Source: Anaerolineae bacterium (lineage in GTDB: Bacteria > Chloroflexota > Anaerolineae > B4-G1 > DUEL01). From it: a stretch of DNA of 64,000 bases. Below are positions 3-23,465 of this stretch, piece by piece. The notes beneath the pieces were generated by a model. The model was not told the DNA's origin, made no database searches, and worked only from the letters and a program-made list of their open reading frames with translations. The position numbers were made by a program, and so were the translations under genes. Numbering within the stretch: the stretch's first letter is position 1; each line of letters starts with the position of its first letter. Location of the stretch: assembly GCA_041082215.1 (NCBI GenBank), contig JBDOIF010000058.1, forward strand, positions 1,406 through 65,405. Direction: 5' to 3'.

Positions 3-1430
3 GTGACTCCCTTCACGAAGGATGGGGCGTTCGACGAGGCTGCCTACCGGGCGCTCATTCGCTATGTCCTGCCCCACGTGAACGGGGTGGTCCCCTGCGG
101 GACCACAGGCGAGTTTTCTTATATGAGCATCGAGGAACGCAAGCGGGTCATCGGGGTCTGCCTGGATGAGGTGGGGGGACGGGTGCCGGTGGTGGCCGGG
201 ACCGGCTGCCCCTCCACCCGCGACACGCTGGCCCTCACCGAGTGGGCCCGCGACGCCGGGGCGACCGGCGTGCTGGTCGTCGCCCCCTACTATCTCAAAC
301 CCTCTTTCAACGAGGTGTATGACCACTACCGGGCGCTGGACGGGCTGGGCGTCCCCCTGGTCCTTTATAACATCCCCCAGTGTGCCGGCACCCACTTCCG
401 CTGGTGGACGGCCGAGGGGATGCTCCTCGATTTCGACAACGTGGTGGGCATCAAGGACTCCTCCGGCGACCTGCCTTTTATGGAGGCCCTCTTCGAAAAG
501 GTCAAGGGCCGGGTGGGGATCTTCGTCGGCCACGACGAGGTGGTGCAGGCGGCGCTGGCCGCTGGCGCCGACGGGGCGATTCTGGCCTCGGCCAATCTGA
601 TCCCCGACATCTGGCAGATGGTCTATCGGGCCACCCTGGAGAGGGACCTGGAGACGGCGCAGATGTGGCAGCAGAAGGTGCAGAAGCTGGTGCGCATCGT
701 CGTACAGTGCAGCTCCACCCAGGCGGTCAAGGAAGGGTTGCGGATGATGGGGCTGCTGGTGGGCGACTCCCGCCATCCGATCATGCCCGGCGGCGGCTTC
801 CGGCGGGAGGACTACGAGGAGATGCGGCTCCAGCTTGAGGACCTGGGCAAGCTCCGGGATGCGGAGGTAGTGTACGACCTGGGAAGCAGGCAGGTGCACA
901 CCTGCGTCCCCGCCACGCCGGATACCCCGTCCGTGGTGGCTGGCTGGACCCTGCGGGTGGGCGAGGGGTTCGCCGGGCCGCCCTTCCAGGAAATTGCCCA
1001 CGTGGACCTGTTGCTGGGCCGCCGGGACGGGCCGGTGGGCCGCGCGGTGGAGCGGGCGCTGGCCGGTTGGGGCCAGGAGCGGGGGCTGAAGGTGATCTGC
1101 GAGCGCCCGTTGACGTTATTGGTCCCCACGGTGACCATCCGCACCGCCAGGCAGCGCCGCCTCTTTTACGAACACGCCGCGGAGGGGATCAGCCTGGCGG
1201 TCCGCAAGAACGTCGAGAGCGGCTACCTGCCGGAGGAGGCGCTGGACGAGCTGGTGCTGATCGTTAACGCCTTCGTCCATCCGGCGGCCTCCATCGCCAA
1301 ACGGGTGGCCCTCAACAACTACAAGGCGATGATGCAGGCGGTGCGCAAGGCCATCGAGGGGCGGCCCACCCTGGCGCAACTCTTCAACGAGAAGGCCGCC
1401 GCCCGCCATCCGTTCCGGTACGCGCCGTAG
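3..1430 (+). CDS. Class I aldolase (DapA / N-acetylneuraminate lyase family) fused to a C-terminal Fae-like (formaldehyde-activating enzyme) domain. The 5' end is cut off by the window edge.
   Basis: N-terminal half carries DapA-family motifs (GTTGEF, YNIPQCAG). C-terminal about 170 aa aligns with Fae: EIAHVDLLLGRRDGP..., LTLLVPTVTI, ELVLIVNAFVHP, NNYKAMMQAVRKAI, ARHPF. The ORF runs from the window edge with no start codon. Confidence 0.7.
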   Translation: MTPFTKDGAFDEAAYRALIRYVLPHVNGVVPCGTTGEFSYMSIEERKRVIGVCLDEVGGRVPVVAGTGCPSTRDTLALTEWARDAGATGVLVVAPYYLKPSFNEVYDHYRALDGLGVPLVLYNIPQCAGTHFRWWTAEGMLLDFDNVVGIKDSSGDLPFMEALFEKVKGRVGIFVGHDEVVQAALAAGADGAILASANLIPDIWQMVYRATLERDLETAQMWQQKVQKLVRIVVQCSSTQAVKEGLRMMGLLVGDSRHPIMPGGGFRREDYEEMRLQLEDLGKLRDAEVVYDLGSRQVHTCVPATPDTPSVVAGWTLRVGEGFAGPPFQEIAHVDLLLGRRDGPVGRAVERALAGWGQERGLKVICERPLTLLVPTVTIRTARQRRLFYEHAAEGISLAVRKNVESGYLPEEALDELVLIVNAFVHPAASIAKRVALNNYKAMMQAVRKAIEGRPTLAQLFNEKAAARHPFRYAP

Positions 1431-2760: not shown

Positions 2761-2965
2761 CGTATTTCAATTTCGGGGCGGGTGGTCCTCTCGCCCGCCG
2801 GTGGATCGCGAATCCCACGAATGGCCCGAATACAGCGAACAGGAGAGATCCCTCCCCCATTTGCCGTATTCGTTTCCATTCGCGCCATTCGTGTTTCCCC
2901 AGGTCCGGCCCGGGCCAGGGACATCTCGCCCCCAGACTGAAATACACCTCCCACCCGATGACTCG

Positions 2966-2993
2966 TTGCATCCTGGCCGGGCGATGGTATAAT
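2966..2993 (+). promoter_or_regulatory. Putative sigma70 promoter of the tat operon.
   Basis: TTGCAT (2966-2971) - 16 nt - TGGTATAAT (extended -10; TATAAT at 2988-2993), about 35 nt upstream of the tatA ATG. Confidence 0.45.
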
Positions 2994-3026
2994 AACAGGC
3001 GGCGAATCCAGGATCAGAGGTGAAGG

Positions 3027-3215
3027 ATGAAGTTCGGTAACTTCGGCATCGGGGAGCTTTTGATCATCCTGGCCATCGTTGTCCTCCTTTTCGGAGTCGG
3101 CCGGTTGGGGAAGATCGGGGCCGAGCTGGGGAAGGGGATCCGGAACTTCCGGCAGGCTCTTTCCGGGGAAGAGCGGCAGGAGGAGAGGGGGGAGTCGGAA
3201 CCAGCCAAGGACTAG
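3027..3215 (+). CDS. tatA: Twin-arginine translocase TatA/E-family protein.
   Basis: 62 aa with an N-terminal transmembrane helix and amphipathic helix: FGNFGIGELLIILAIVVLLFG...GKGIRNFRQA. Confidence 0.9.
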   Translation: MKFGNFGIGELLIILAIVVLLFGVGRLGKIGAELGKGIRNFRQALSGEERQEERGESEPAKD

Positions 3216-3245
3216 GCCCGGCGCTGGCTTGCTGAGATTGTCCTG

Positions 3246-3611
3246 ATGGAATTCTTCAACATCGGCACGGGCGAGCTCGTCTTTCTTGTCCTGCTCGCCA
3301 TTCTGCTGGTCGGCCCCAAGCGGGCGGTGGAGCTGGTGCAGCAGGGAGGGCGTCTGATGGCCCGGCTGCGCCGGGAGTGGATGGCCGTCCAGCGGGACGT
3401 GCTCTCAGAGGTCCAGGCGCTCAAGGAGGAGACGCTGGGAGCGGTTGAGCCATCGCTGCGGGAAGACCTGAGACGGGTGGCAGAAGAGACGAAAGCGCTC
3501 GAGAAAGAGGTACAGGCGATCGGAAGGCCAGCCGGGTCTCAGGCCCCGCGCGGGAAGGGCGAAGCTCCTCTCCCCCAGCCGGTGGGGCCGGGTGAAGACA
3601 TGGCGGGATGA
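3246..3611 (+). CDS. tatB: Twin-arginine translocase TatB-like protein (TatA/B family).
   Basis: FNIGTGELVFLVLLAILLVGPKR..GGRLMARLRRE start followed by a longer charged, coiled C-terminal tail (121 aa). Sits between tatA and tatC. Confidence 0.7.
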   Translation: MEFFNIGTGELVFLVLLAILLVGPKRAVELVQQGGRLMARLRREWMAVQRDVLSEVQALKEETLGAVEPSLREDLRRVAEETKALEKEVQAIGRPAGSQAPRGKGEAPLPQPVGPGEDMAG

Positions 3612-4333
3612 GCGAAGAGGCCGGCCAGTCCATATTGGAACACATCGAAGAGCTCCGTCGGCGGTTGTTCCGGGCGCTGCTGGCCCTGGCGGTAGGGGTG
3701 TTGATCAGTGCTCTTTTTGCCCAGCAGCTTCTGGAGTGGCTGGCCCGCCCCGTCGGCGGCCTGGAGAACCTGGAGGCCATCGAGGTTACGGAGAACGTCG
3801 GCGTCTTCATGCAGGTGACCCTTCTGGCCGGTGTCACCCTGGCGATGCCGGTGATCCTATACCAGCTCTGGCGGTTTATCTCCCCGGGCCTTTTCCCCCA
3901 CGAGCGCCGTTACGTTTATCTTCTGGCCCCTCTGGCAACCTTCCTTTTCGTCGGCGGAGCCGCTTTTGCCTATTTCGTTATGCTCCCGACAGCCATCCCT
4001 TTCCTGCTCGGCTTTGTCTCCATCCCTACCCGACCCCGTCCGGCCAACTATATTTCCTTTATCACTAACCTGATGTTCTGGATAGGCCTCAGTTTTGAGA
4101 CCCCTCTGGTGATCTTCTTTCTGGCGAAGGCGCGGGTGGTGGACTACCGGACGTTGCTCAAGAACTGGCGGGTGGCCCTTTTTCTGATCGCTGTGCTGGC
4201 AGCGGTGGTGACTCCCACGCCCGATCCGGTCAATATGGCGCTGGTGATGTTGCCCCTGATCCTGCTGTATGGCCTGAGCATCCTCCTGGCCCGCGTCGCC
4301 TATCGGCCGCAGAGGGACCTGGAGAGTTCCTGA
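3608..4333 (+). CDS. tatC: Twin-arginine translocase subunit TatC.
   Basis: HIEELRRRL motif and six predicted transmembrane segments; start overlaps the tatB stop (ATGA). Confidence 0.9.
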   Translation: MSEEAGQSILEHIEELRRRLFRALLALAVGVLISALFAQQLLEWLARPVGGLENLEAIEVTENVGVFMQVTLLAGVTLAMPVILYQLWRFISPGLFPHERRYVYLLAPLATFLFVGGAAFAYFVMLPTAIPFLLGFVSIPTRPRPANYISFITNLMFWIGLSFETPLVIFFLAKARVVDYRTLLKNWRVALFLIAVLAAVVTPTPDPVNMALVMLPLILLYGLSILLARVAYRPQRDLESS

Positions 4334-4378
4334 GTTTTCCTCATTTTTCCCCCGCTCAGAATAAGCCCGCAGCACGTA

Positions 4379-4420
4379 GCGCCGGATCCAATCCGGCGCT
4401 GTGTTTTAGGAATTTTTTAA
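4379..4420 (+). terminator. Rho-independent terminator of the tat operon.
   Basis: gcgccggat-cca-atccggcgc (9-bp stem) followed by tgtgttttaggaatttttt. Confidence 0.65.
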
Positions 4421-4424
4421 TGAT

Positions 4425-4805
4425 TCTCTAGAAATTGTTTCACTGTCAGGGGTTATACTCATTATTGTGGACTTAGGGGGGTGCAGAGGGCTAGCCACGG
4501 AGGAGAAGGGAGTCTGAGGCATCATTTGTTCTGCCCCTGTTAGTTGACTGTTTCTCAGCTTTTTCCGTACACCTCTCCTCTTCTGCGTTGTAAGAGAGTC
4601 CCGCCTGGGTGGTTGCATTGTCGGGCGGTGATCGGGCGGGCCGTCTCGCTCCGACCGGATCCTCCTGGGTTAGCGGTTGTTTTGGAGAGCCCGACGAGCA
4701 CTGGGGCTGAGGCCATTTCTGGGGCGCTCCAAACGTCTGGCCCCTCATAGCAAGTATGTGCTTCTCCCGGATTGTGGACCGGTGGAGTGAAGGGAGGGTA
4801 ATCAG
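4425..4805 (+). promoter_or_regulatory. AT-rich putative promoter (-10 TATACT at 4454-4459) and a leader of about 340 nt before the first gene of the glycan locus.
   Basis: Local drop in GC, TATACT hexamer, then no convincing ORF until the ATG at 4806. The leader contains a complementary pair (gttttggagagc / gcgctccaaac). Confidence 0.3.
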
Positions 4806-5525
4806 ATGGCTTCGGAAGCCACGAAACCGTGGGGAATGGTGGGGTATGTGTCCCTCGTGGACAGGGGCCGGGGCCGGCTGGGCTACAGGTTCCTCAAGCG
4901 GGCACTTGACGTGGAGGTGGCCTTGTCCTTGCTTTTCCTGCTGGCCCCTCTTATGGCCCTGATCGCGGTCCTCATCCGGCTGGAGTCCCCCGGCCCCGTG
5001 ATCCTGGTGCAGAAGCGAGTGGGGAAGGGGGGACGGGTGTTCGACTTCTATAAGTTCCGTTCGATGCGCCACGAGGGTGACGGGGGAGAACACCGAACCT
5101 ACATAAGAAGATATATCAATGGCCCCCTGGAGGGGGAGGAGCCTGCCTGGATGGAGGGAAGGGTGAGCCGGCCGTTCAAGCCCAGCGCGGCGGGCAAGGT
5201 CACCCGGGTGGGGAGGTTCCTCCGCAAGACCAGCCTGGATGAGCTCCCTCAACTTTTCAATGTGTTGAAGGGGGATATGAGCCTGGTAGGTCCTCGCCCC
5301 CCTATGGCGTATGAAGTGGAGGAATATAAACCCTGGCACTGGCGGCGTTTCGAGGTTCTGCCGGGGATAACGGGATTGGCTCAGATCAACGGGAGGAGTA
5401 AGCTGACCTTTCCTGAGATCATTCGCTGGGACTTTAAATACATCGAGCATTGTTCATTTCTCCTAGATCTGATGATCCTGTTGCGCACAATCCCTATGGT
5501 GCTGACGGGACAGGGGGCGGGCTAG
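4806..5525 (+). CDS. Polyprenyl-phosphate sugar-phosphotransferase (bacterial sugar transferase, WbaP/PglC/WsaP-like small type). This is the enzyme that initiates the glycan on the lipid carrier.
   Basis: N-terminal transmembrane hairpin (VALSLLFLLAPLMALIAVLIRL), PGPVILVQKRVGKGGRVFDFYKFRSM and DELPQLFNVLKGDMSLVGPRP motifs. Confidence 0.85.
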   Translation: MASEATKPWGMVGYVSLVDRGRGRLGYRFLKRALDVEVALSLLFLLAPLMALIAVLIRLESPGPVILVQKRVGKGGRVFDFYKFRSMRHEGDGGEHRTYIRRYINGPLEGEEPAWMEGRVSRPFKPSAAGKVTRVGRFLRKTSLDELPQLFNVLKGDMSLVGPRPPMAYEVEEYKPWHWRRFEVLPGITGLAQINGRSKLTFPEIIRWDFKYIEHCSFLLDLMILLRTIPMVLTGQGAG

Positions 5526-5537
5526 CGGAGGGAGTAC

Positions 5538-6989
5538 GTGAGGGTTTGTCTGGTTGTGCCGCCATGGCGCTACCTGACGACAGAGGCCCCTCCGCTGGGC
5601 GTGGCGTACATCGCAGCCGCGCTCGAACAGGAGGGGCATACTGTACAGGTAGTGGATTGGAGCCAGGAGCCGCTCCCCTCCCTATCGGGAATGCTGGGGG
5701 AGGGGCGGATGACCGCTCTCTCTGCCATACGCCCCGACATGGTGGGCCTGAGCGTGATGAGCGGCAACTGGCTCAGCGGCAGGATGATCCTCCGATGGGT
5801 AAAGGAGAATCTGGGGTGCTGGATTGTAGTCGGTGGCCCGCACGCCACGGCGCTTCCTGAGTCCGTCCTGCAGGCAGGGGCCGACTTCGTGGTCCGGGGG
5901 GAGGGGGAAGAGACCGTCCTCGAGCTGGTCCGGGCTTTGGAGGAGGGAGGGAACGGCCTGGAGCGCATCGCGGGACTCTCCTTCCGGCGGGGGGAGCAGA
6001 TCGTCCATAACCCCCCTCGCCTGCCACAGGCCGATCTGGATAGCCTCCCCCTCCCAGGCTTTCATCTGTGGGACCTGGGACCGTACTCCGAAGGGGGTTC
6101 AGGGTGGGGGGTGATGCTGCCGTTGCTGGTCGGGCGAGGCGGAGAGGGCACATACCGACAGCGAAGCCCGGAGGGTGTGGCAGAGGAGATGGCCCTGCTG
6201 GCCCGGAATCACGGGCGGTATGTGGCGCACCTGATAGGAGATGTGCTGTTTGACGGGGGCCGCTGGCTGGAGGGGCTGGCACACCAGATGGCTGCCCGTT
6301 TGTTGAGGGTGGAATGGCGGTGCCAGGCTCCACTGGAGCACCTCACCCCGCGCCTGCTGGCCCGGATGCGCGAGGCGGGATGTCGGTGGGTGGACTGGCA
6401 TTGGGAGGGTAACGGGGAGGCGCTTTTCGCCAACTGGGAGACGGTGCAGAGAAACGTGCTGTGGATGACCAGTATGGACGTCTTCAGCATCGGCCATTTC
6501 CGGTTGGGCGGGGTGGGGGAACGGCCCGATCATATCCTGCGGATGGTGGAACGGATATCCGAACTGGAGCTGGATGCCGCGGAGTTCTCCTGGTTCATTC
6601 CCCACCCGGCAACTCCCGCATGGGAGCTTGTAAAGGACGGAGGGGGCGGGATGCTCTGGGAGGATTACTACGAAAGTGTCGGGAACCCGCGGGGATGTGC
6701 AACCAGCCTGAACGTCTCCAGGGCCTCTTCAGCAGAGGTGAGGCATCTCCTGCGCCGGGCGCGGTATCTGTTCATCGAGGCCAGGCGCCGGAGAAAGTAC
6801 CAGCTCTACTTCGGTAAGCAGATCGGCGAAGCCCTGTGGTGGGTTTCCAGACAGCCATGGATTCAGAGTCTGGGATGGGAGCTTGCCCACCGACGGATGG
6901 CCCGCGGGAACGGGGGAGGCGAGGAGGCGGAAAGGCCGACAGGCCCTCTCAAAGCGGCGTCGGGGGAAAGCCCCACTGCGGAAGGATAA
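5538..6989 (+). CDS. B12-binding-domain / radical-SAM-like protein that lacks the canonical CxxxCxxC cluster motif; probably a degenerate, non-radical-SAM form.
   Basis: The N-terminus resembles the B12-binding region of B12-radical-SAM enzymes (LVVPPW...[21 protein letters not shown]; [12 protein letters not shown]; [10 protein letters not shown]). Where the Cys triad is expected, the sequence reads [18 protein letters not shown], with no cysteines and a shortened segment. Confidence 0.5.
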
Positions 6990-7003
6990 CAGGAAGGTCG
7001 AAG

Positions 7004-7780
7004 GTGAAGGTCGTCATTCTGGCCGGAGGATATGGGACCCGCCTCAGCGAAGAGACGGGGGTGAAGCCTAAACCGATGGTCGAGATCGGCGAACGGCCCA
7101 TCCTGTGGCATATCATGAAAATCTACTCGACCTATGGCATCAACGACTTCATCATCTGCTGCGGCTACAAGGGGCATGTGATCAAACAGTATTTTGCCTC
7201 CTACTTCCTGTACATGTGCGACGTCACTTTCGACCTGCGGAACAACCGGATGGAGATCCACCAGAACGATGTCGAACCGTGGCGGGTGACGCTGGTGGAT
7301 ACAGGGGAGAAGACGATGACCGGCGGGCGGCTCAAGCGGGTCCGGGAATACGTTGGGGATGAGACCTTCTGCTTCACCTACGGCGACGGGTTAAGCGATG
7401 TGGACATTGCGGACCTCATCGCCTTCCACCGCCAGCAGGGGGTGCTGGCCACGATGACCGCCGTCCAGCCGCCGGGCCGGTTCGGGACCTTCAGGCTGGA
7501 GGAGGGGCAGACGAAGGTCACTCAGTTTCGGGAAAAGCCTCAGGGGGACGGGGCCTGGGTCAACGGCGGCTTCTTCGTCCTGGAACCGGGGGCCATTGAC
7601 TATGTGGACGGGGATGATACCGTCTGGGAGCGGGAGCCGCTCCAGCGGCTGGCCCGGGACGGCCAACTGGCCGCCTACCGGCACTACGGCTTCTGGCATC
7701 CGATGGACACCCTGCGGGATAAGATGGTGCTGGAGGAGCTGTGGACCTCCGCCAACCCGCCCTGGAAGGTCTGGAAATGA
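7004..7780 (+). CDS. rfbF: Glucose-1-phosphate cytidylyltransferase.
   Basis: GTG start after aggaagg. [38 protein letters not shown]; about 258 aa, typical of RfbF/DdhA. Confidence 0.85.
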
Positions 7781-8853
7781 ACCGGGATTTCTGGCGCGGC
7801 AAAAGGGTCCTTGTCACCGGCCACACCGGGTTCAAAGGAAGCTGGCTCTCTTTATGGTTGCAAAGGTTAGGGGCCAGGGTGGTCGGCTACGCCCTCTCCC
7901 CACCCACCCAGCCCAGCCTGTTCGAGATCGCCCACGTCGCCGACGGGATGACCTCCGTTCTGGGCGACATCCGCGACCTGACCTACCTTCGGGCGGTCCT
8001 GGCGGAGCACCGCCCCGAAATCGTGATCCATATGGCAGCCCAGCCGCTGGTTCGCTATTCCTACGAGCACCCGGTCGAGACCTACTCAGTCAACGTGATG
8101 GGGACGGTGAACCTGCTGGAGGCGGTGCGGCAAACGCCGGGGGTCCGGGCAGTGGTCTGCATCACCAGCGACAAGTGCTACGAAAACAGGGAGTGGGTGT
8201 GGGGGTATCGGGAAGAGGACCGGCTGGGCGGGCGGGACCCCTACTCCAGCAGCAAGGGATGCGCGGAGCTGGCCATCTCCGCCTACCGCCGCTCCTACTT
8301 TCCGCCGGAGCGGTACGGGGAGCACGGGGTGGCGCTGGCCAGCACCCGGGCGGGCAACGTGATCGGCGGCGGCGATTGGGCCAGGGACCGTCTGATCCCG
8401 GACATTATGAAAGCGTTGCTGGAAGACCGACCGGTGGTCATCCGCAACCCCCACGCCATCCGGCCCTGGCAGCACGTGCTGGAGCCGCTGAACGGCTACC
8501 TCTGCCTGGCGGAGCGGCTCTACACCGACGGGCCGCCGTTTGCCCAGGCGTGGAACTTCGGGCCGGATAGCGAGAACGCCAGAACGGTGGGCTGGATCGT
8601 CGAGTATCTGACCCGCAGGTGGGGCGAGGGCGCCCGCTGGGAGCTGGACGGGGCCGAGCATCCCCACGAGGACACCTACCTCAAGCTGGATAGCTCCAAG
8701 GCCCGCAGCCTGCTGGGATGGGCGCCCAGACTCCCCCTTGCCACCGCTCTGGAGTGGATTGTGGAATGGTATCAGGGGTATCGGCAGAAGGCGGATATGC
8801 GGGCGCTGACCGAAGCCCAGATCGAGCGGTTTGAGGCGATAGAGGTGGCATGA
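7777..8853 (+). CDS. rfbG: CDP-glucose 4,6-dehydratase.
   Basis: ATGA overlap with rfb[18 protein letters not shown] Rossmann motif and SDKCYEN catalytic YxxxK region; about 358 aa. Confidence 0.85.
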
Positions 8854-9383
8854 TTTTTGAAGAGACCCGGTTAAAGGGAGCTTATATCGTCAGTCTCGAG
8901 CCGATCCAGGACAATCGGGGGTTCTTCGCCCGGGCCTGGTGCCAGAAAGAGTTCGCCGCCCACGGCCTGACCACCACCTTCGTCCAGGCGAACATCACCT
9001 ACAGCCCCAGGCGGGGTACCCTGCGCGGCCTGCACTATCAGATCGCGCCGCACGAGGAGATCAAGCTGGTGCGGTGTGTGCGGGGCGCCATCTTTGACGT
9101 CATCATTGACCTGCGGCCCGACTCGCCTACCTACCTGCAGTGGCTCAGCACCGAGCTGACGGCGGAGAACCGGAAGGCGATCTACATCCCCGGCGGTTTC
9201 GCCCACGGCTATCAGACCCTGGAAGACGACACCGAGGTCTTCTACCAGGTGGGGCAGTTCTACGCCCCTCAGTACGAGCGCGGCATCCGCTGGGACGACC
9301 CGACCTTCGGGATCAAGTGGCCCATCAACCATCCGGTCATCCTCTCGGAAAAAGACCAGCGGTGGCCGGATTTCGAGCCGTAG
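8850..9383 (+). CDS. RmlC-family cupin (dTDP/CDP-4-keto-6-deoxyhexose 3,5-epimerase-like).
   Basis: RGLHYQ, GFAHGYQTLEDDTEVFY motifs; 177 aa; lies directly downstream of the CDP-glucose dehydratase gene. Confidence 0.75.
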   Translation: MIFEETRLKGAYIVSLEPIQDNRGFFARAWCQKEFAAHGLTTTFVQANITYSPRRGTLRGLHYQIAPHEEIKLVRCVRGAIFDVIIDLRPDSPTYLQWLSTELTAENRKAIYIPGGFAHGYQTLEDDTEVFYQVGQFYAPQYERGIRWDDPTFGIKWPINHPVILSEKDQRWPDFEP

Positions 9384-9396
9384 GGCACGTCGAGCG

Positions 9397-10632
9397 ATGG
9401 GAGATGCCGGGCTGGTCGGGCTGCTGGCGGATACATGGTGGTTCGGCCTGACGGACCGTCTGGCAGAGCCGGATTTCAAGGACCTGGCGGCCCGTCGCGC
9501 CAAGCAGGGGTTCTCAGCCATCCAGATGGTCGTCGGCATCCCGCCGGAGGTGGGGCCGGAAAACGAGAACGCCAGAAGCCCGGCCGGGTTCCCGTGGACC
9601 CTGGACGGGCAATTCAATCGGGCGTATCTCCAATTTGCCAGAGGACGTATCGAGTACCTGAACAGCCTGGGGCTGAAAGCTGTCGTCTACGGGGCGTGGG
9701 GGCATCAGATCGAGTGGCTGGGCCGGGAGAGGATGGCCGGGTGGTGGCGGCTGATCGTCGAGACGCTGGACGATCTGGACGTGCTCTACTGCCTCTGCGG
9801 CGAAAGCAGCCTCTGGATCGGCCAGGAGGGGATGCTGCTCCCGGATAAGACAACTGCCGAACTGCTGGCCCGGGTCCGCTTCTCCTGGCTCCCCCCGCGC
9901 CTGAGGGCCTTTCTCGGCGCTGCTGCTCACCGTCTCAAGAAACGGCTGCACCGGCGCCAATGGGAGGCCCGCCGGCAGGCATGGGGATCTGTGCTGGAGG
10001 AGGTAGCCCGGCGCACCGGCCGGCCCATCCTCATCCACCCCACGGCGGACGAGACGGGGTATGAGGCGGTGCCCAACCCCGAGCGGTTGGCGGCCAACAC
10101 CGCCCAAACCGGGCACGACGAGGGGGCCAGGAACCGGCTGTGGCGGCTGCCTCTGGAGCTGGACCGTCGCGGCCTCGCCCCCCGGGGATACATCAACCTG
10201 GAACCCTGGTACGAGGGGATAGGGGATCGGTTCTGGGCCCCGGACCAGCTTTATGCCTACTGGGCCTCGATGCTGGCCGGCGCGCTGGGCCACTGCTACG
10301 GGGCCCACGGCATCTGGAACGTGGGGGACGGAACGTTCCTGGCCCACTGGGGCAGGCAGACCTTTGCCCGGGCGGTGGCGCTGGAGACACCCCGGCTGAT
10401 CGGGCTTTCCCACCGGCTGCTGATGGAGTGCTGGGAGCCTGGGGGGGAGAGCTTTTACCAGACGAGAAGGGGGGAGTTGATCGCCATCGGCAGGCGATGG
10501 GGCGGGAGGGTGGTCCAGTTCTTCCCGGACGTTGCCCGTGTGGATCGGCTGCCGGAGGGGAGGTGCTGGCTTCCGCTGGAAGGGACCTTTGCAGGAACCC
10601 GGCCTTCCAGCGGACCGGCTGTCATTCTGTGA
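9397..10632 (+). CDS. TIM-barrel glycoside-hydrolase-like protein (DUF4038-like); function unknown.
   Basis: 411 aa with no signal peptide. Weak resemblance to DUF4038/GH-like proteins (WWFGLTDRL..., KQGFSAIQMVVGIPPEVGPEN...). Sits inside the sugar-nucleotide operon. Confidence 0.35.
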   Translation: MGDAGLVGLLADTWWFGLTDRLAEPDFKDLAARRAKQGFSAIQMVVGIPPEVGPENENARSPAGFPWTLDGQFNRAYLQFARGRIEYLNSLGLKAVVYGAWGHQIEWLGRERMAGWWRLIVETLDDLDVLYCLCGESSLWIGQEGMLLPDKTTAELLARVRFSWLPPRLRAFLGAAAHRLKKRLHRRQWEARRQAWGSVLEEVARRTGRPILIHPTADETGYEAVPNPERLAANTAQTGHDEGARNRLWRLPLELDRRGLAPRGYINLEPWYEGIGDRFWAPDQLYAYWASMLAGALGHCYGAHGIWNVGDGTFLAHWGRQTFARAVALETPRLIGLSHRLLMECWEPGGESFYQTRRGELIAIGRRWGGRVVQFFPDVARVDRLPEGRCWLPLEGTFAGTRPSSGPAVIL

Positions 10633-10755
10633 GGACGCGAATGACACGAGTGGAGGCGAATTGCACAAATGTGAGCGTCTTTTCCGATTCGTGGGGTTCG
10701 GATCATTCGTGGAATTCGTGATTCGTAATATGCAGGGGGATCGGTTGCCCCAAAA

Positions 10756-12087
10756 TTGAAGCGCGTCGGGAAGGCGCCTATGGTCATCGTGGATAAAGCG
10801 TTGGAGGAGCGGGAGCGGGCAGGGAGTCCGATCCGGGTGGCGATGGTGGGGGCCGGGTACATGGGGCGCGGCATCGCCCTCCAGATCATCACCGCCACGC
10901 CGGGCATGCGGCTGGTGGCGATCGCCAACCGCACCCTCTCCCAGGCGGAGCGGGCCTACCGGCAGGCGGGGGTGGAGTCGGTGCGCGTGGTGGAGACGGA
11001 GGCCGGGTTGGAGGAGGCGGTCTCCCGGGGGGAGTATGCCGTCACCGAAGACGCGATGCTGCTCTGCCGGGCCGGGAACATAGACGCCGTGATCGAGGTG
11101 ACCGGCACCATCGAGTTCGGCGCCCGCGTCGCGCTGGAGGCGATCGAGCACGGCAAGCACGTGATCCTGATGAACGCTGAGCTGGATGCCACCCTGGGGC
11201 CGATCCTGAAGGTCTACGCTGACCGGGCCGGGGTAGTGGTCACCAACGCCGACGGCGACCAGCCGGGGGTGATCATGAACCTCTACCGGTTCGTCCGTGC
11301 CATCGGTTGCCGACCGGTGCTTGCAGGCAACATCAAGGGGTTGCACGACCCCTACCGCACCCCGGAGACCCAGCGGGCCTATGCCGAGAGGTATCGTCAG
11401 AAGCCGCAGATGGTCACTTCCTTTGCCGACGGCACGAAGATTTCGATGGAGATGGCGGTGGTGGCCAATGCGACCGGCTTCCGGGTGGGCCGGCGTGGGA
11501 TGTACGGCCCTCACTGCGAGGATGTGTCGGACGCGCTGGAGCTGTTCCCGATGGATCAGATGCTGGAGACCGGCCTGGTGGATTACATCGTCGGGGCCAG
11601 GCCGGCGCCGGGGGTGTTCGTGCTGGGCTACAACGACCATCCCCTGCAGCAGGAATACCTGAGGTACTACAAGATGGGGGAGGGGCCCCTTTACGTCTTT
11701 TACACCCCTTATCACCTGTGCCACCTGGAGGTGCCGCTGACGGTGGCCCGGGCGGTGCTTTTCCATGACGCTGCCGTTGCCCCGCTGGGAGGCCCGGTGA
11801 CGGAGGTGATCACCGTTGCCAAGCGGGACCTGAGGGCGGGGGAGGTGCTGGACGGCATCGGCGGCTTCACCTGCTATGGTGTGCTGGAGAACTACGAGGT
11901 GGCCCGGGCCGAAGACCTGCTGCCGATGGGACTTTCAGAAGGGTGTCGGCTGCGGCGGGATGTGCCCAGGGACCAGGCTATCGCCTACGGCGACGTCGAA
12001 CTGCCGCCGGATCGGCTGAGCGACCGGCTGCGGGCACAGCAGACGGCCTGTTTCGCCCCGGTCCATGCTTCTGTGGCGGCGGTGTAG
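10756..12087 (+). CDS. NAD(P)-binding oxidoreductase with a C-terminal SAF domain (COG4091-like 'predicted homoserine dehydrogenase').
   Basis: VAMVGAGYMGRG Rossmann motif; ILMNAELDATLGPIL...NADGDQPGV core; C-terminal SAF-like region. The start may be the ATG at 10780. Confidence 0.5.
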   Translation: MKRVGKAPMVIVDKALEERERAGSPIRVAMVGAGYMGRGIALQIITATPGMRLVAIANRTLSQAERAYRQAGVESVRVVETEAGLEEAVSRGEYAVTEDAMLLCRAGNIDAVIEVTGTIEFGARVALEAIEHGKHVILMNAELDATLGPILKVYADRAGVVVTNADGDQPGVIMNLYRFVRAIGCRPVLAGNIKGLHDPYRTPETQRAYAERYRQKPQMVTSFADGTKISMEMAVVANATGFRVGRRGMYGPHCEDVSDALELFPMDQMLETGLVDYIVGARPAPGVFVLGYNDHPLQQEYLRYYKMGEGPLYVFYTPYHLCHLEVPLTVARAVLFHDAAVAPLGGPVTEVITVAKRDLRAGEVLDGIGGFTCYGVLENYEVARAEDLLPMGLSEGCRLRRDVPRDQAIAYGDVELPPDRLSDRLRAQQTACFAPVHASVAAV

Positions 12088-12112
12088 GTTGGGCGGACGG
12101 GGGGAGGAAGTC

Positions 12113-13000
12113 ATGAGTGTCGAAGGTATGGAGGAGCGGCCAGCGGCGGGGTTGCTGACGTCTGCGCCGTCGGGTCAGGTGCCGGTGATCCGGATCAGGC
12201 CCTCCAGAGGATGGGTCTCTCTGAGGCTCGGTGAGCTGTGGGAGTACCGGGAGCTGCTCTATTTCCTGATCTGGCGGGACATCAAGGTGCGCTACAAGCA
12301 GACGGTGCTGGGCGCAGCCTGGGCGATCATCCAGCCCTTCTTTACGATGGTGGTCTTCAGCCTTTTCTTTGGAAAACTGGCACGGGTCCCTTCCGATAAC
12401 ATCCCTTATCCCATCTTCAGCTACGCCGCTCTGGTGCCGTGGTCTTTCTTCGCCAATGGCCTGACCCAGGCCTCGACCGGCATCGTGACCCATGCCAACC
12501 TGATTACGAAGGTATATTTCCCGCGCCTGGCCATACCGATCGCCAGAGTGCTGGCCGGAGTTGTGGACTTCGGGCTGGCCTTTATCGTGCTTTTGGGGAT
12601 GATGTTTGCCTATGGCATTGTGCCGACCGCCAACGTCCTCTGGCTGCCCCTTCTTTTGCTTTTGGCTCTGGTCACCTCGCTGGGGACGGCCCTCTGGCTT
12701 GCGGCGATGAACGTGCAGTTCCGGGATGTGGGCTACATTGTGCCGTTCATCACCCAGTTCTGGATGTTCGCTACGCCGATCGCTTATCCCAGCAGCCTGA
12801 TCGAGGACCCCCTGTTACGGACGCTGTATGGCATCAACCCGATGGTCGGTGTGGTGGAGGGTTTTCGCTGGGCGCTGCTGGGCGTTGAAACCGCGCCGGG
12901 GCCGACGATCCTCGTTTCGTCGCTGGTGGCGTTGACCCTGTTGATCGGTGGGGCGTTTTACTTCCGCCGGATGGAGAAGACCTTTGCGGACGTGGTGTAG
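12113..13000 (+). CDS. wzm: ABC-2 type polysaccharide exporter permease.
   Basis: ATG after ggaggaag; six transmembrane segments; LIWRDIKVRYKQTVLGAAWAIIQP signature of Wzm/TagG permeases. Confidence 0.85.
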   Translation: MSVEGMEERPAAGLLTSAPSGQVPVIRIRPSRGWVSLRLGELWEYRELLYFLIWRDIKVRYKQTVLGAAWAIIQPFFTMVVFSLFFGKLARVPSDNIPYPIFSYAALVPWSFFANGLTQASTGIVTHANLITKVYFPRLAIPIARVLAGVVDFGLAFIVLLGMMFAYGIVPTANVLWLPLLLLLALVTSLGTALWLAAMNVQFRDVGYIVPFITQFWMFATPIAYPSSLIEDPLLRTLYGINPMVGVVEGFRWALLGVETAPGPTILVSSLVALTLLIGGAFYFRRMEKTFADVV

Positions 13001-13009
13001 GGAAGCCCG

Positions 13010-14299
13010 ATGAGCGATATCGCCATTTGGGTGGAAGGTCTGGGTAAGCAATATCGCATCGGCAAGAGGCGCGAGCGGTACATGACCCTGCGCGACCAGT
13101 TGGCCAATGCCTTAGCGGCGCCATTTCGCAGGGCGGGCAGGCTCCTGCGCGGTCAGGCTACCGGCGCGGCCGAGCTGGACGAGACCATCTGGGCTCTGCG
13201 GGATGTCTCTTTCGAGGTCAGACGTGGCGAGGTCGTCGGCATCATCGGCCGCAACGGCGCGGGGAAGAGCACGCTGCTGAAGGTCCTCTCGCGGATCACC
13301 GAGCCCACGGAGGGGCAGGCCGAGATCCGCGGACGGGTAGGCTCCCTGCTGGAAGTGGGGACTGGCTTTCACCCGGAACTGACCGGGCGAGAGAACATCT
13401 ATCTGAACGGCGCCATCCTGGGCATGAAGCGGGTCGAAATCGAGCGCAAGTTCGACGACATCGTTGCTTTTTCCGAGATCGAAAAGTTTATTGATACGCC
13501 GGTGAAACACTACTCCAGCGGCATGTACCTGCGTCTGGCCTTCGCTGTGGCTGCTCATTTAGAGCCGGAGATCCTGTTGATAGATGAAGTCCTGGCGGTG
13601 GGGGATGCGGCGTTTCAGAAGAAGTGCATCGGCAAGATGGGGAGCGTGGCAAGAGAGGGCCGAACGGTTCTGTTCGTCAGCCACAACATGGGGGCGATCA
13701 CCCAGCTATGCGAGCGGACCCTGTGGCTGGACGAGGGGCGGCTGAGGCTCAGCGGGCCCTCTTCGGAAGTCGTCGCTGCTTACCTGTCCTCGGGGACGGA
13801 GGGGCAGGCGACGTGGTGCAACCCCTCTGCGGCGCCGCGCGATCTGGAGGTCCAGTTGAGGTCGGCGCGTGTGTTGCTGGGGGACAACCGGCCGGCGGCG
13901 ACCGTTGATTTCGACAGCCCGTTCAGAATTGAACTCACCTACGACGTTTTTCAGCCGATCAGAGACCTGTCCGTTGCTTACCAGTTGATGGATTCCCAGG
14001 GGAGCCTGGTGTTTGAGGCCATGGACACGGACATGCCTGAATGGAAGGGCCGGGTCAGAGATCCAGGGCGGTATGTAGCCACCTGCCGGGTTCCCGGTTA
14101 CCTGCTCAAACCGGGCCGCTATCACCTCTCCCTTGTTTCATTCGTCGAGCGGGTGAAGATCATCGAACGGCAGGAGGGGGTGCTGACTTTCGACGTTTCT
14201 GAGGTGGGGTATTGCCTGAATCCCGGCCGGTTGGGCGTTGTCTCGCCCGTGCTGGAGTGGGAAGTGAATCGGGTGGATGGGGCTGGGCGAGTCCTGTGA
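13010..14299 (+). CDS. wzt: Polysaccharide ABC exporter ATP-binding protein with a C-terminal carbohydrate-binding (Wzt_C-like) domain.
   Basis: Walker A GRNGAGKST, signature YSSGMYLRLAF, Walker B LLIDEVLAVGD. An extra C-terminal beta-rich domain of about 170 aa follows the nucleotide-binding domain. Confidence 0.85.
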   Translation: MSDIAIWVEGLGKQYRIGKRRERYMTLRDQLANALAAPFRRAGRLLRGQATGAAELDETIWALRDVSFEVRRGEVVGIIGRNGAGKSTLLKVLSRITEPTEGQAEIRGRVGSLLEVGTGFHPELTGRENIYLNGAILGMKRVEIERKFDDIVAFSEIEKFIDTPVKHYSSGMYLRLAFAVAAHLEPEILLIDEVLAVGDAAFQKKCIGKMGSVAREGRTVLFVSHNMGAITQLCERTLWLDEGRLRLSGPSSEVVAAYLSSGTEGQATWCNPSAAPRDLEVQLRSARVLLGDNRPAATVDFDSPFRIELTYDVFQPIRDLSVAYQLMDSQGSLVFEAMDTDMPEWKGRVRDPGRYVATCRVPGYLLKPGRYHLSLVSFVERVKIIERQEGVLTFDVSEVGYCLNPGRLGVVSPVLEWEVNRVDGAGRVL

Positions 14300-21099: not shown

Positions 21100-22341
21100 A
21101 TGGTCGGTCATCGTTATCGAGTCCTTTATGTGGAAAACGCAAACAGTGTGGGGGGGTCCATTATCAGCGTCTACCGGCTGGTCCAGGAGCTGGACCGACG
21201 GTATGAGCCTGTCATCCTGTTTCACCGGCCCAACGGTTATGCTGCCCGCTTCCATGAGCTGGGCCTTGAGGTGATCGTGCTGGAGGAGGGAGACGGGCCT
21301 TCGCTTCAGGGTGGGCGTGGCCGGTCACGCGACATAGCAGCCTGGCTGGGCCGCTACAGCTCAGGCCTGGCCCGGGCTTACCGGGGAGCGAAATTCATTT
21401 ATCTGCTTGGGAGGCAGACCCTACCGGAATCCTGGCGCATTTATCGGGTGATCAGGAGCCGGGGGATTGACCTGGTGCATCTGAACAATCGGTTGAGCAG
21501 TAACCGTAGTGGGGCTCTGGCCGCACGGCTGGCTCGCGTTCCGTGCGTATGTCACGTCCGCGACTTCGACCGACTGACCTGGTTCGACCGCTGGTTGCTG
21601 GGAAGTGTGGATTACTTCGCCTTTATGTCGCGTGCTTTGGAGCAGCAGTTAAGAGCGATAGCGCCCTCTCTTCGCGGATCAGTCGTTTACGATGGCCTGG
21701 ATTTGAGCCGATTCGTTTATTCTCGGGGAGGGGATGGGGTTCGTCGAGAATTGGGCCTGAACCGGGAGGACTTCGTGGTGGGGAATGTGGGGCGGTTGGT
21801 GCCGTGGAAAGGGCAGGAGGTCTTCTTGCGTGCGCTGGCCCGCGTCGCGCCGCAGGTGCGCAATCTCAAAGCGCTGATTGTGGGCGAGCCGGACCCGCCA
21901 ACGGAGACCGCCTATTTGAAGCATTTGCAGTCCCTGGTTCAGGAACTGGGCCTGTCGGATATTGTCCGGTTCACGGGGTTCTATTCGGATATTCCCCGCC
22001 TCATGGCTTCGCTGGATGTGGTGGTACACAGTTCCTCGTCACCGGAGCCGTTCGGCATCGTGGTGATCGAGGGCATGGCGGCGGGCAAGCCGGTGATCGC
22101 TACCGGGGCTGGGGGGGTGCTGGATATTGTCGAGGATGGGCGGAACGGGTTGTTAGTGCCGGTGGGAGACGACCAGGCGATGGCTGAGGCGATCTTGAGC
22201 CTGGCCCACAGCCCCGATCTGGCGGTTCAGTTGGGGACGAATGCATGCCAGCGTGTGAAGGCGCATTTCGCGGTGACCCGGTACGCCCAGACGGTGCAGG
22301 CCATCTATCAGGGTTTACTGCTGGGAGGGGAGTCGGCCTGA
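21100..22341 (+). CDS. Glycosyltransferase family 1 (GT4).
   Basis: GQEVFLRALA...; FGIVVIEGMAAGKPVIATGAGGVLDIVEDGRNGLLV (E-x7-E region). Confidence 0.85.
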   Translation: MVGHRYRVLYVENANSVGGSIISVYRLVQELDRRYEPVILFHRPNGYAARFHELGLEVIVLEEGDGPSLQGGRGRSRDIAAWLGRYSSGLARAYRGAKFIYLLGRQTLPESWRIYRVIRSRGIDLVHLNNRLSSNRSGALAARLARVPCVCHVRDFDRLTWFDRWLLGSVDYFAFMSRALEQQLRAIAPSLRGSVVYDGLDLSRFVYSRGGDGVRRELGLNREDFVVGNVGRLVPWKGQEVFLRALARVAPQVRNLKALIVGEPDPPTETAYLKHLQSLVQELGLSDIVRFTGFYSDIPRLMASLDVVVHSSSSPEPFGIVVIEGMAAGKPVIATGAGGVLDIVEDGRNGLLVPVGDDQAMAEAILSLAHSPDLAVQLGTNACQRVKAHFAVTRYAQTVQAIYQGLLLGGESA

Positions 22342-23465
22342 TGGTGCTGACGGATTTTCTGCTGCCAAGGCCCTATAAGCTGTATACCATTCTCAGAGCC
22401 AGGCGTCATCCAGCGCCGATAGACCGGGCTCGGGTTGAGAGGGTGTTGGCCTCTTTTGACTGTGGTCAGTTGAAAGGCTGCCGACGGCCAGCAATCGGAC
22501 CCAGCCGTTCCGCAAATTTCATTCTGGAGACGAGTGATGGTCTGAAGGTCCTGAAGCAGTATAGGCCAGATATGAGCCTTGGGGGCATCACCTATGAACA
22601 CTCGGTTCTGAAACACCTGGCCAATCATCACTTCCCTTCACCCAGGCTGATCCCGAACAGGGAAGGAGAGACCTGTGTAGAGATAGACGGCAGACATTAC
22701 GCCCTTTTTGAGTTCATCCCTGGTTTCCGCTACAGTGATTACTTTTTTCTTTCCAGGAAGATGAGGTTCTTTCTTACAGAGGCAGGCAAGACTCTCGCCC
22801 ATTACCATCAAGTTGTAGAGGGTTTGGTTCCATCCGGTAGGAAGCTGGACGGTTTTGTCCCCGATGGCTCGCGGCGGTGGCGCGATCAGAGCTGGTATCT
22901 GGATCTGTTTGCAGCATCTGAGGAGTTGTTTAGGGCGAGGGGGGCGGGATCGGAATCAAGCCGGTTTTTCCTCGATAACCTGGCGCGGCTTGAGGAATGC
23001 TATATTGATCTCAACCAGAGGCTTGCTCAAAGTTTGATCTCGCTACCCAAGTTGGTTATCCATGGAGATTATGGTCCCTATAATCTTCTTTTCAATGGGG
23101 GGGCACTGGTGGCTGTACTGGATTTCGAATGCACTCATCTCGATCTGCGGGCCATCGAGATCATTACATCTCTGGTCCGCTTTGCCAGCTCAGATGCAAG
23201 GTTTGACTATGATAAAGCCAGGGTTTTCTTCAGGGCCTATGTTTCACAGTGTCCCCTCTCGAGGGGCGAGATCGAAAGGATGCCGGATCTCTTCCGGCTG
23301 GAGAAAATCAGAGTATTGGCTTGTCTGCTGGAAGAATACTTTAGTTTAGCAGATTCACTGATGCTTCGCTACGCTCGTCAGTTGATGGGCCGGATTGATT
23401 GGATGGCAAAGAACAGCGACGAGTTGGTTCAGGTCTTGCTGGAGTGTGCGGAGACAAGAGGCTGA
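22341..23465 (+). CDS. Protein-kinase-fold phosphotransferase (APH / choline-kinase / homoserine-kinase II family).
   Basis: Brenner motif VIHGDYGPYNLLF and downstream LDFE; about 374 aa; ATG overlaps the stop of the upstream GT gene. GC content is locally lower. Confidence 0.7.
   Translation: MVLTDFLLPRPYKLYTILRARRHPAPIDRARVERVLASFDCGQLKGCRRPAIGPSRSANFILETSDGLKVLKQYRPDMSLGGITYEHSVLKHLANHHFPSPRLIPNREGETCVEIDGRHYALFEFIPGFRYSDYFFLSRKMRFFLTEAGKTLAHYHQVVEGLVPSGRKLDGFVPDGSRRWRDQSWYLDLFAASEELFRARGAGSESSRFFLDNLARLEECYIDLNQRLAQSLISLPKLVIHGDYGPYNLLFNGGALVAVLDFECTHLDLRAIEIITSLVRFASSDARFDYDKARVFFRAYVSQCPLSRGEIERMPDLFRLEKIRVLACLLEEYFSLADSLMLRYARQLMGRIDWMAKNSDELVQVLLECAETRG

Follow-up and report, generated by a model that had tools for sequence, protein, structure and literature searches.

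A radical-SAM homologue without its cluster-binding cysteines is retained at one glycan-operon position in three bacterial lineages

The second gene of a large glycan operon on contig JBDOIF010000058.1 of an Anaerolineae bacterium encodes a homologue of the cobalamin (B12)-dependent, or class B, radical S-adenosylmethionine (SAM) enzymes that has no CxxxCxxC cluster motif. The stretch analysed, hereafter the window, is 64,000 nucleotides long and its numbering is used throughout; the gene lies at 5538-6989. We read the Cys-less protein as a repurposed, radical-SAM-derived accessory of the glycan operon and give this, as a whole explanation, a probability of roughly 0.55. Selection has kept the gene at one operon slot in three distant lineages, which argues for a repurposed ‘dead enzyme’ and not for an error or decay.

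Loss of the cluster loop and the SAM site

The gene and the parts of its product are as follows (aa, amino acids; ORF, open reading frame; pLDDT, predicted local distance difference test; A1, alignment defined below).

5527-5534, + strand: Shine–Dalgarno-like GGAGGGAG ahead of the GTG start, read from the sequence
5538-6989, + strand: Cys-less class-B radical-SAM homologue, ORF of 483 aa with a GTG start
5538-5987, + strand: Rossmann-type cobalamin-binding domain, aa 1-150 (PF02310, 73.1 bits; cut-off 32.1)
6111-6632, + strand: remnant radical-SAM core, aa 192-365, six β/α units of a partial TIM barrel (model strands)
6135-6152, + strand: scar of the deleted cluster-binding loop, R200 G G E G T205 in place of RGCPYNCSYCFKGIVGRT (12-residue gap in A1)
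6429-6434, + strand: scar of a second deletion, 6 aa between A298 and N299, with the helix-4a Lys gone (gap in A1)
6633-6926, + strand: C-terminal helical cap, aa 366-463, with the subfamily signature RRRKYxLYFGxxxGxxLWxxS (helices 398-425, 427-437 and 440-459)
6927-6986, + strand: low-confidence, probably disordered tail, aa 464-483 (pLDDT < 50; not conserved)

The N terminus (MRVCLVVPP) lines up with that of the family (MRIALISPK), and GC content per codon position in the ORF (0.70/0.49/0.76) resembles that of adjacent genes. An earlier, sequence-only reading of this DNA had placed a cobalamin-binding domain at the N terminus and suggested comparison with the profiles PF02310 and PF04055. 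The first passes, with a Pfam match over aa 15-130 (E 2.2e-20) that bears out the domain, and is matched by both orthologues described below; the second (Radical_SAM) fails, scoring 13.6 bits against a gathering cut-off of 29.5. What there is of the PF04055 match opens at profile position 21, past the Cys motif, and neither orthologue matches this profile at E ≤ 1. The NCBIfam scan gave 18 matches at E ≤ 1, exclusively sub-threshold class-B radical-SAM models (BchE, ladderane-type, ApyD, HpnJ and others), and in the Pfam and NCBIfam scans the protein resembles no known sugar-nucleotide enzyme family.

We compared the protein with its relatives in two alignments, A1 (the query plus the 20 closest full-length homologues) and A2 (118 homologues). 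Where the family reads SRGCPYNCSYCFKGIVGRTYRQRSP, the window protein has GRGGE, a 12-residue gap and GTYRQRSP (A1), an in-frame deletion that removes the three cluster Cys; the CX3CX2C motif that should follow β1 is absent and its site is a gap. The Cys-free segment first noticed at this place is therefore genuine, and so is the shortening, although the exact figure is 12 residues instead of roughly ten. A second in-frame gap, of 6 residues and missed by the sequence-only reading, lies after β4 within the family segment GIESGNxEILxxIGKGITLEQVR. It takes out a Lys whose column is at least 90% conserved among the 118 homologues and which sits 12 residues past the ribose-motif Glu, the same spacing as in OxsB (E436/K448) and TokK (Q312/R324). 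In those enzymes the basic residue of helix 4a (OxsB K448, TokK R324) binds the SAM carboxylate (PMC9204698), and the matching spacing indicates that both deletions take out cofactor-binding loops.

The remaining SAM-binding motifs fare no better. With their roles as defined in PMC9204698 (GGE, ribose, helix 4a, GxIxGxxE and β6), the positions changed in all three Cys-less proteins are the GGE-equivalent D234, the ribose-motif neighbours S291 and G292, Y320/M322 in the GxIxGxxE region and M349/T353/T354 on β6; E290 alone survives, in the window protein only. Persistence of the SAM-binding motifs had been raised as a check, and they do not persist: the GGE, ribose, helix-4a Lys/Arg, GxIxGxxE and β6 elements are deleted or replaced. 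Reductive cleavage of SAM would no longer be possible, so the protein very probably carries out no radical-SAM chemistry. Its alignments nonetheless indicate descent from a cobalamin-dependent (class B) radical-SAM enzyme.

A non-canonical radical-SAM enzyme, holding its Fe-S cluster on other residues, would have precedent, as non-canonical cluster ligation exists in the superfamily (for example, in ThiC and Dph2). The protein has five Cys, at positions 4, 94, 262, 282 and 387, which form no CxxxCxxC, and C94, C262 and C282 are conserved in all three Cys-less proteins. These same Cys are, however, also conserved or common in intact relatives that have the normal motif, and so do not look like replacement ligands; moreover, C94 belongs to the Rossmann domain, and the SAM-contact Lys and motifs have gone too. 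We regard such an enzyme as highly improbable.

An AlphaFold2 model built from the 118-sequence alignment (pLDDT 89, predicted template-modelling score 0.88) shows a five-stranded Rossmann domain, a β-hairpin, six β/α units and a helical cap, with barrel strands at 192-197, 228-233, 259-263, 282-289, 316-323 and 347-352 (pLDDT mostly > 90). Its strands pair one-for-one with those in a model of the intact homologue P0003 (pLDDT 93.8) except at the two trimmed loops: the β1–α1 loop has 6 residues against 18 in P0003, and the helix-4a segment is longer in P0003. Foldseek searches of the PDB return TsrM (E 2e-18), MgmA, CysS, AprD4, OxsB and TokK as best matches (E 2e-18 to 1e-13), and matches down to E 1e-7 are radical-SAM enzymes exclusively. 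The confident model thus answers the earlier question of whether the TIM barrel persists: the protein is predicted to retain the fold, with a partial (β/α)6 barrel of six units, the Rossmann B12-type domain and the C-terminal cap. We also considered a membrane-anchoring amphipathic helix in the C-terminal RRRKY region, which a hydrophobic-moment scan did not single out.

A single old loss shared by three lineages

Searches for relatives covered 5.8 and 1.84 billion proteins and two contig collections. Exhaustive phmmer searching of the 1.84 billion representatives identified P0121, from a Chloroflexota metagenome-assembled genome (MAG; JBMOMT010000043.1), as the nearest non-self relative; at 37% identity, it too is free of the Cys motif. 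A third Cys-less protein, on a Joint Genome Institute (JGI) metagenome contig (L012:8999-10501), was found only by the metagenome contig scan, which was run with two peptide patterns. Orthologues with the same loss, which the sequence-only reading had suggested seeking, were thus found in both places. Word-indexed protein searches and phmmer against the 1.84 billion representatives gave no further member of the clade beyond P0121; a GTDB genome scan with the single protein gave no match, and one with a two-sequence alignment returned the P0121 MAG and an unrelated partial match in Paenibacillus only. Two further candidates from the metagenome scan, L013 and L014, proved to be ordinary proteins (L013 carries CPFQCAFC).

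Both deletions occur in all three proteins (loop lengths −12/−8/−9 and −6/−5/−5), which also have clade-specific residues in common (WRCQA, GCRxVD, GH[FL] and xNVxW). The three are monophyletic in 200/200 neighbour-joining bootstraps, on long branches that are sister to the intact subfamily, which indicates a single old loss of the radical machinery. This loss predates the split of three lineages that are now very divergent: the window protein is 35-37% identical to the others and P0121 is 49% identical to L012, against 57-79% (window comparison) and 73-83% (P0121 versus L012) for the flanking genes.

Another member of the same B12-radical-SAM subfamily, P0145 (L009:1537-2988, JGI 3300033153), has its three cluster Cys substituted (SRGSARKRVFYV) with no deletion, and still matches PF04055 at 6e-12. 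Its neighbours are non-glycan genes (a CLC channel, ComFB and DUF481). Known from a single contig and grouping with the Cys-less clade in 42% of bootstraps, it appears to record an independent loss, perhaps a later one.

A sequencing artefact, to be recognised by a frameshift-corrected reading or by orthologues with an intact motif, was the outcome that the sequence-only reading had named as fatal. For several kb around the gene, none of the six reading frames contains CxxxCxxC; across 6000-6300 the two alternative + frames are rich in stops or read as unrelated sequence, and the remaining CxxxCxxC strings in the window fall in unrelated ORFs, or on the strand or in a frame opposite ORFs with high GC at third codon positions. 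Neither a frameshift correction nor another frame brings the motif back. Three independent assemblies, SRR28530377, SRR27730042 and SRR27730043, encode exactly the same 483-aa protein, and a fourth, SRR27730030, carries a 426-aa part of it. One of these assemblies is 100% identical in DNA to window positions 2921-13258 and the others represent a strain variant (99.5-99.8%). With the motif in no frame, the same protein in four independent assemblies that include a strain variant, and both deletions present in the orthologues, an error of sequencing or assembly, or a frameshift, in a normal B12-radical-SAM gene is exceedingly unlikely.

Selection on the Cys-less gene

Each of the three lineages has an intact ORF of 483-503 codons, and every indel is in frame. 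Between P0121 and L012 the non-synonymous rate (dN) is 0.39-0.43 and the synonymous rate (dS) about 1.7-1.8, giving an ω of about 0.25 that is only approximate because dS is near saturation. The flanking enzymes have dN of 0.11-0.17, so the Cys-less gene evolves 2.5-4 times faster. Within the strain variant, three single-nucleotide polymorphisms fall inside the gene and all three are synonymous third-position changes (chance P = 0.016-0.037); a single-base change placed at random in the gene would introduce a stop in about 3.7% of cases. These comparisons indicate a protein that changes faster than the adjoining enzymes yet is clearly under purifying selection, and fast yet constrained evolution of this kind would be more in keeping with a protein that binds or scaffolds than with a core enzyme. 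We hold it almost certain that this is a real, selected gene.

A decaying, functionless remnant that is still open by chance would account for the fastest-evolving gene of the operon, for the destroyed catalytic motifs and for the rarity of the clade, of which three lineages were found. It is hard to reconcile with ORFs of 483-503 codons intact in three lineages at 35-49% identity, with indels that are all in frame, an ω near 0.25, strain polymorphisms that are synonymous in 3/3 cases, a conserved operon position and the share of single-base changes that would make a stop (~3.7%). We consider it very unlikely.

The distribution of change along the protein supports retention under a new role. 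Across the intact subfamily the radical-SAM core is better conserved than the B12 domain (mean identity 70% versus 58%), and the window protein reverses this when compared with that subfamily (44% in the B12 domain, 31% in the core). Positions that are at least 90% conserved in the family divide in the same way:

B12 domain: 16 kept in all three Cys-less proteins, 4 changed in all three
Core: 18 kept in all three Cys-less proteins, 36 changed in all three

Inside the clade, core and B12-domain identities are 54% versus 47% (P0121 and L012) and 35% versus 40% (window and P0121). Change therefore appears to have been concentrated on the stem branch and then stabilised, the pattern expected of a change in function and not of ongoing decay.

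A glycan-operon slot in place of a radical cassette

From ~4.8 to ~45 kb the window is a single large + strand glycan cluster. The Cys-less gene is its second gene, as first proposed, between a priming-type transferase and rfbF, and the genes around it are as follows.

4806-5525, + strand: Bac_transf, small polyprenyl-phosphate sugar-phosphate transferase, 239 aa, first operon gene (PF02397, E 2.4e-61)
7004-7780, + strand: rfbF, glucose-1-phosphate cytidylyltransferase (TIGR02623, 456 bits; cut-off 300), 79% identical to the same-position gene of the orthologous locus L008
7741-8853, + strand: rfbG, CDP-glucose 4,6-dehydratase (TIGR02622, 512 bits; cut-off 278), 73% identical to L008
8850-9383, + strand: RmlC-type sugar-nucleotide 3,5-epimerase (TIGR01221, 198 bits; cut-off 156), syntenic in L008
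9397-10632, + strand: apiosidase-like (PF13204) protein, syntenic with the Cys-less gene, 63% identical to L008
10780-12087, + strand: DRL-type NAD oxidoreductase (PF21135), syntenic, 72% identical to L008
12113-14299, + strand: Wzm/Wzt ABC exporter, Wzt with a Wzt_C glycan-binding domain (PF01061, PF00005, PF14524; gene starts as called in L004)

Bac_transf, whose NCBIfam EPS_sugtrans/WbaP-type matches fall under the equivalog cut-offs, ends at 5525, 12 nucleotides before the Cys-less gene, and rfbF starts at 7004, 14 nucleotides after it. Farther along, the cluster encodes GT2/GT4 transferases, deacetylases, acyltransferases, an APH-type kinase, Wzz- and Wzy_C-like proteins, heparinase II/III-like and asparagine-synthase-like proteins, and a set of UDP-sugar dehydrogenase, oxidoreductase, acetyltransferase and DegT aminotransferase. 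The order Bac_transf, Cys-less gene, rfbF holds in 3/3 lineages. In the P0121 MAG it continues through rfbG, then the epimerase, and then the apiosidase-like, DRL and ABC2 genes, and the shorter L012 contig repeats as much of the window gene order as it spans.

Intact relatives keep different company. At 5/5 loci the B12-radical-SAM gene is followed by a radical-SAM/SPASM gene and then by two to four PMT_2 genes (glycosyltransferase family GT-C). These cassettes lie on Chloroflexota/Anaerolineae-type contigs (L001:3334-12800, L003:2453-10205, L015:145-5764, L016:351-2821 and L017:327-5936), and in two of them a DegT aminotransferase and an acetyltransferase come next. Radical_SAM, SPASM and PMT_2 have no Pfam match among the 51 window ORFs scanned between 3 and 48020, and the cassette of the intact subfamily is accordingly absent from the window ORFs scanned up to 48 kb. 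Because the Cys-less genes stand beside Bac_transf and rfbF, and the intact ones in a radical-SAM/SPASM cassette, the gene orders indicate that, as the radical machinery was lost, the gene also gave up its radical partner and was recruited into another operon.

Two in-frame deletions excised the [4Fe-4S] Cys loop and the helix-4a Lys, most other SAM contacts were replaced, and the gene moved at the same time from the B12-radical-SAM, radical-SAM/SPASM and PMT_2 cassette to the slot between the priming transferase and rfbF/rfbG. We propose that the protein now acts as a non-radical accessory, or pseudoenzyme, of the initiation/CDP-6-deoxyhexose module (CDP, cytidine diphosphate), its conserved scaffold binding a ligand or partner: cobalamin through the Rossmann domain and/or a sugar-linked substrate of the ancestor’s type. 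On whether it is a non-catalytic accessory rather than a new enzyme, we put the odds at about even.

The cobalamin site and the barrel pocket

Class-B enzymes contact cobalamin (Cbl) through GxS/TxX after β3, GG on β4 and GE at the start of α5 (PMC9204698). All three motifs are present in the window protein, where they align residue for residue with those of TokK, GG and GE included.

5745-5759, + strand: ‘downstream Cbl-binding motif’ G70-L-S72-V-M74 after β3, aligned with A70-x-S72-x-Y74 of TokK
5832-5843, + strand: GG motif on β4, G99 G100 P101 H102, near-invariant among the 118 homologues
5898-5909, + strand: GE motif G121-E-G-E124 at the start of α5; E124 is invariant in A2 and the model helix runs from residue 123

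In L012 the motifs are weaker (GLTAA, AG and GE). Residues of the Cys loop contact cobalamin in the solved TsrM, TokK and OxsB structures (PMC9204698), and these cobalamin-touching residues are deleted in all three Cys-less proteins. The His-on motif DxHxxG is found in the Rossmann domain of none of the three. A D-x-H-x-x-G string at aa 286-291 (DWHWEG, 6393-6410) was rejected as such a motif: it lies on β4 of the barrel, which is the wrong domain, and the orthologues do not preserve it (DYHFCF and DYFFQF), so we take it as a coincidence.

Several findings weigh against the repurposed-accessory explanation. P0121 keeps GG, but its GLIAL has no motif Ser/Thr and its GESA has lost the E124 that is invariant elsewhere. 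Neither a cobalamin riboswitch nor any other Rfam family reaches gathering score in the window, L008 or L012, and no B12-metabolism gene occurs among the 51 window ORFs scanned with Pfam between 3 and 48020. The core has 17 residues that the three Cys-less proteins share but that few family members carry at the same positions, and many of these are polar (R261, Q263, D286, N306, D314, H320 and E349 among them). The near-saturated dS blurs the measure of constraint, and the confidence of the AlphaFold2 model leans on an alignment of intact homologues, so that it cannot by itself demonstrate folding of the trimmed protein.

With motif erosion in the orthologues, deleted Cys-loop contacts and no riboswitch or B12 gene nearby, cobalamin binding is plausible for the window protein and, as the function holding the clade together, unlikely. 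A stronger version would make the protein a cobalamin-dependent enzyme that needs neither SAM nor Fe-S, using methyl- or adenosylcobalamin over a remodelled barrel; its substrate, a CDP-6-deoxyhexose or a lipid-linked sugar, would undergo methyl transfer or an adenosylcobalamin (AdoCbl)-type radical rearrangement or dehydration. A Rossmann domain with a TIM barrel is the architecture of AdoCbl enzymes, and the protein shares it; the window protein retains each of the three class-B cobalamin motifs, the B12 domain has 16 family-conserved positions kept against 4 changed in all three, AprD4, a close structural match, is a sugar 1,2-diol dehydratase, and new conserved polar residues line the barrel strands. 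Such an enzyme is nevertheless unlikely, given the missing Ser/Thr and Glu of P0121, the loss of the Cys-loop cobalamin contacts, adenosine/ribose-binding positions that are not conserved, the failure to find a riboswitch or B12 genes nearby and a rate of evolution far above that of the adjoining enzymes. Less probable again is that the protein is the first of a new cobalamin enzyme type, in which a class-B scaffold dropped Fe-S and SAM and would use cobalamin alone. Its intact Rossmann motifs would hold adenosyl- or methylcobalamin over a re-lined polar barrel pocket, to modify a CDP-6-deoxyhexose or polyprenyl-linked sugar while the glycan is assembled; if true, it would connect radical-SAM chemistry in evolution with that of the AdoCbl type.

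The 17 clade-specific core residues are suggestive of a re-lined pocket, as a lead only: their number is no more than the overall three-way identity (35-49%) predicts, and we therefore rejected an excess of such residues as proof of a new active site. They could also be read as a cofactor-independent new enzyme, in which Asp, Glu, His and Arg lining the emptied SAM/cluster pocket would serve acid-base catalysis on a sugar nucleotide from the CDP-glucose pathway. R261, Q263, D286, D314, H320 and E349 sit on barrel strands at or near ancestral SAM-binding positions, the gene adjoins rfbF/rfbG in 3/3 lineages, and, inside the clade, constraint on the core matches that on the remainder of the protein. 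Set against this are the background-level count of shared residues, orthologues that are only 35-49% identical where true pathway enzymes are 57-83%, and a sequence unlike any known sugar-nucleotide enzyme family, which together make this enzyme doubtful. We continue to favour a repurposed, radical-SAM-derived accessory. The choice that the sequence-only reading offered, a pseudo-enzyme or a B12-dependent but non-radical-SAM protein, stands: no corrected reading recovers the motif, and the orthologues share its loss.

Other features of the window

The apiosidase-like and DRL oxidoreductase genes, which also occur together at L008:17346-19982, are an odd pairing for a CDP-6-deoxyhexose pathway, and the DRL oxidoreductase (10780-12087) may be the missing 4-ketoreductase. 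An APH-family kinase (22245-23465, + strand) lies in an ABC-transporter-type glycan cluster whose Wzt (13010-14299) has a Wzt_C glycan-end-binding domain, and could be a WbdD-like chain-terminating kinase. Just past the glycan cluster, a DUF362 protein with a C-terminal 2x[4Fe-4S] ferredoxin domain (45985-47097, + strand) is the only Fe-S protein recognised in the window, with no evident tie to the Cys-less gene. At the other end, the ORF at 3-1430 (+ strand), which runs past the window start, joins a DHDPS-family domain to a C-terminal formaldehyde-activating-enzyme (Fae) domain, an unusual fusion.

A gap of 472 bp (4334-4805) separates tatC from the first glycan gene and is presumably the operon control region. 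It is the most variable stretch of the region compared between strains, holding 5/42 substitutions and both single-base indels across 10.3 kb. No sigma-70 consensus promoter was found on the + strand of 4334-4805, and a promoter/terminator consensus scan of 4200-7200 gave nothing beyond shuffle expectation.

Two observations concern the organism itself. The window EF-Tu has no relative at 90% identity or above in a 15-billion-protein collection. A 40-aa fragment that shares a 90%-identity cluster with the Cys-less protein, WP_277882561.1, is filed under Pseudanabaena sp. FACHB-2040 as a hypothetical protein; its contig is probably from a co-culture or a contaminant, which hints at life with cyanobacteria.

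Discussion

The Cys-less protein is closest in sequence to an uncharacterised B12-radical-SAM subfamily from Chloroflexota/Anaerolineae (P0002-P0021; 33-37% identity over > 90% of the length), with which it shares the RRRKY..FG..G..LW..S signature, co-linearity and the TYRQRSP that follows the Cys loop. Those relatives all keep the Cys motif, are 49-86% identical to one another with the core most conserved, and at the 5/5 loci above do not adjoin Bac_transf and rfbF/rfbG. Among characterised enzymes, TsrM, TokK, OxsB, CysS and MgmA have the same Rossmann B12 domain, partial (β/α)6 barrel and helical cap (TMq 0.55-0.63) and the GxS/TxX, GG and GE cobalamin motifs. Unlike them, the Cys-less protein has neither CxxxCxxC nor the helix-4a Lys/Arg, and its GGE, GxIxGxxE and β6 motifs are degraded; sequence identity with the solved class-B enzymes is 13-20%.

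The highest PDB TM-scores go to AprD4, a radical-SAM 1,2-diol dehydratase of apramycin biosynthesis (TMq 0.65-0.67, TMt 0.69-0.71) that acts on a sugar and is likewise class-B-like with one of two cofactors lost. AprD4 and ArsL are class-B-like enzymes that have lost cobalamin binding, and AprD4, which does not bind cobalamin, keeps its Fe-S/SAM site (PMC12931638). The Cys-less protein is its reciprocal, with the cobalamin motifs kept and the Fe-S/SAM site gone. Methionine synthase (MetH)-type proteins, AdoCbl mutases and corrinoid proteins have the PF02310 Rossmann domain with a GG pocket in common with it, but here the Rossmann DxHxxG is missing and the partner domain is a radical-SAM-derived barrel.

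Cys-less relatives of radical-SAM enzymes are already a known kind, since NCBIfam names ‘pseudo-SAM/SPASM’ families (for example, TIGR04347), radical-SAM homologues that curators flag as lacking the defining site. TIGR04347 belongs to the SPASM-type branch, has no B12 domain and is not matched by the Cys-less protein at E ≤ 1; to our knowledge, families of this type are also uncharacterised. A full-text literature search returned no account of a Cys-less class-B radical-SAM homologue, or of a conserved lineage that lost the Fe-S/SAM half and kept the cobalamin half.

The clade is rare, with three lineages found, and its general impact would be limited unless new chemistry is shown. The only annotated orthologue carries the NCBI label ‘B12-binding domain-containing radical SAM protein’, which over-states its chemistry; a pathway prediction that took this protein for a radical enzyme would be mistaken. 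Comparison with the intact relatives also draws attention to an uncharacterised cassette of B12-radical-SAM, radical-SAM/SPASM and PMT_2 genes in Chloroflexota-type bacteria. B12-dependent radical-SAM enzymes are defined by two cofactors held side by side and, if cobalamin is bound, the Cys-less protein would be a natural ‘half enzyme’ for studying the B12 domain alone and the origin of pseudoenzymes in this superfamily.

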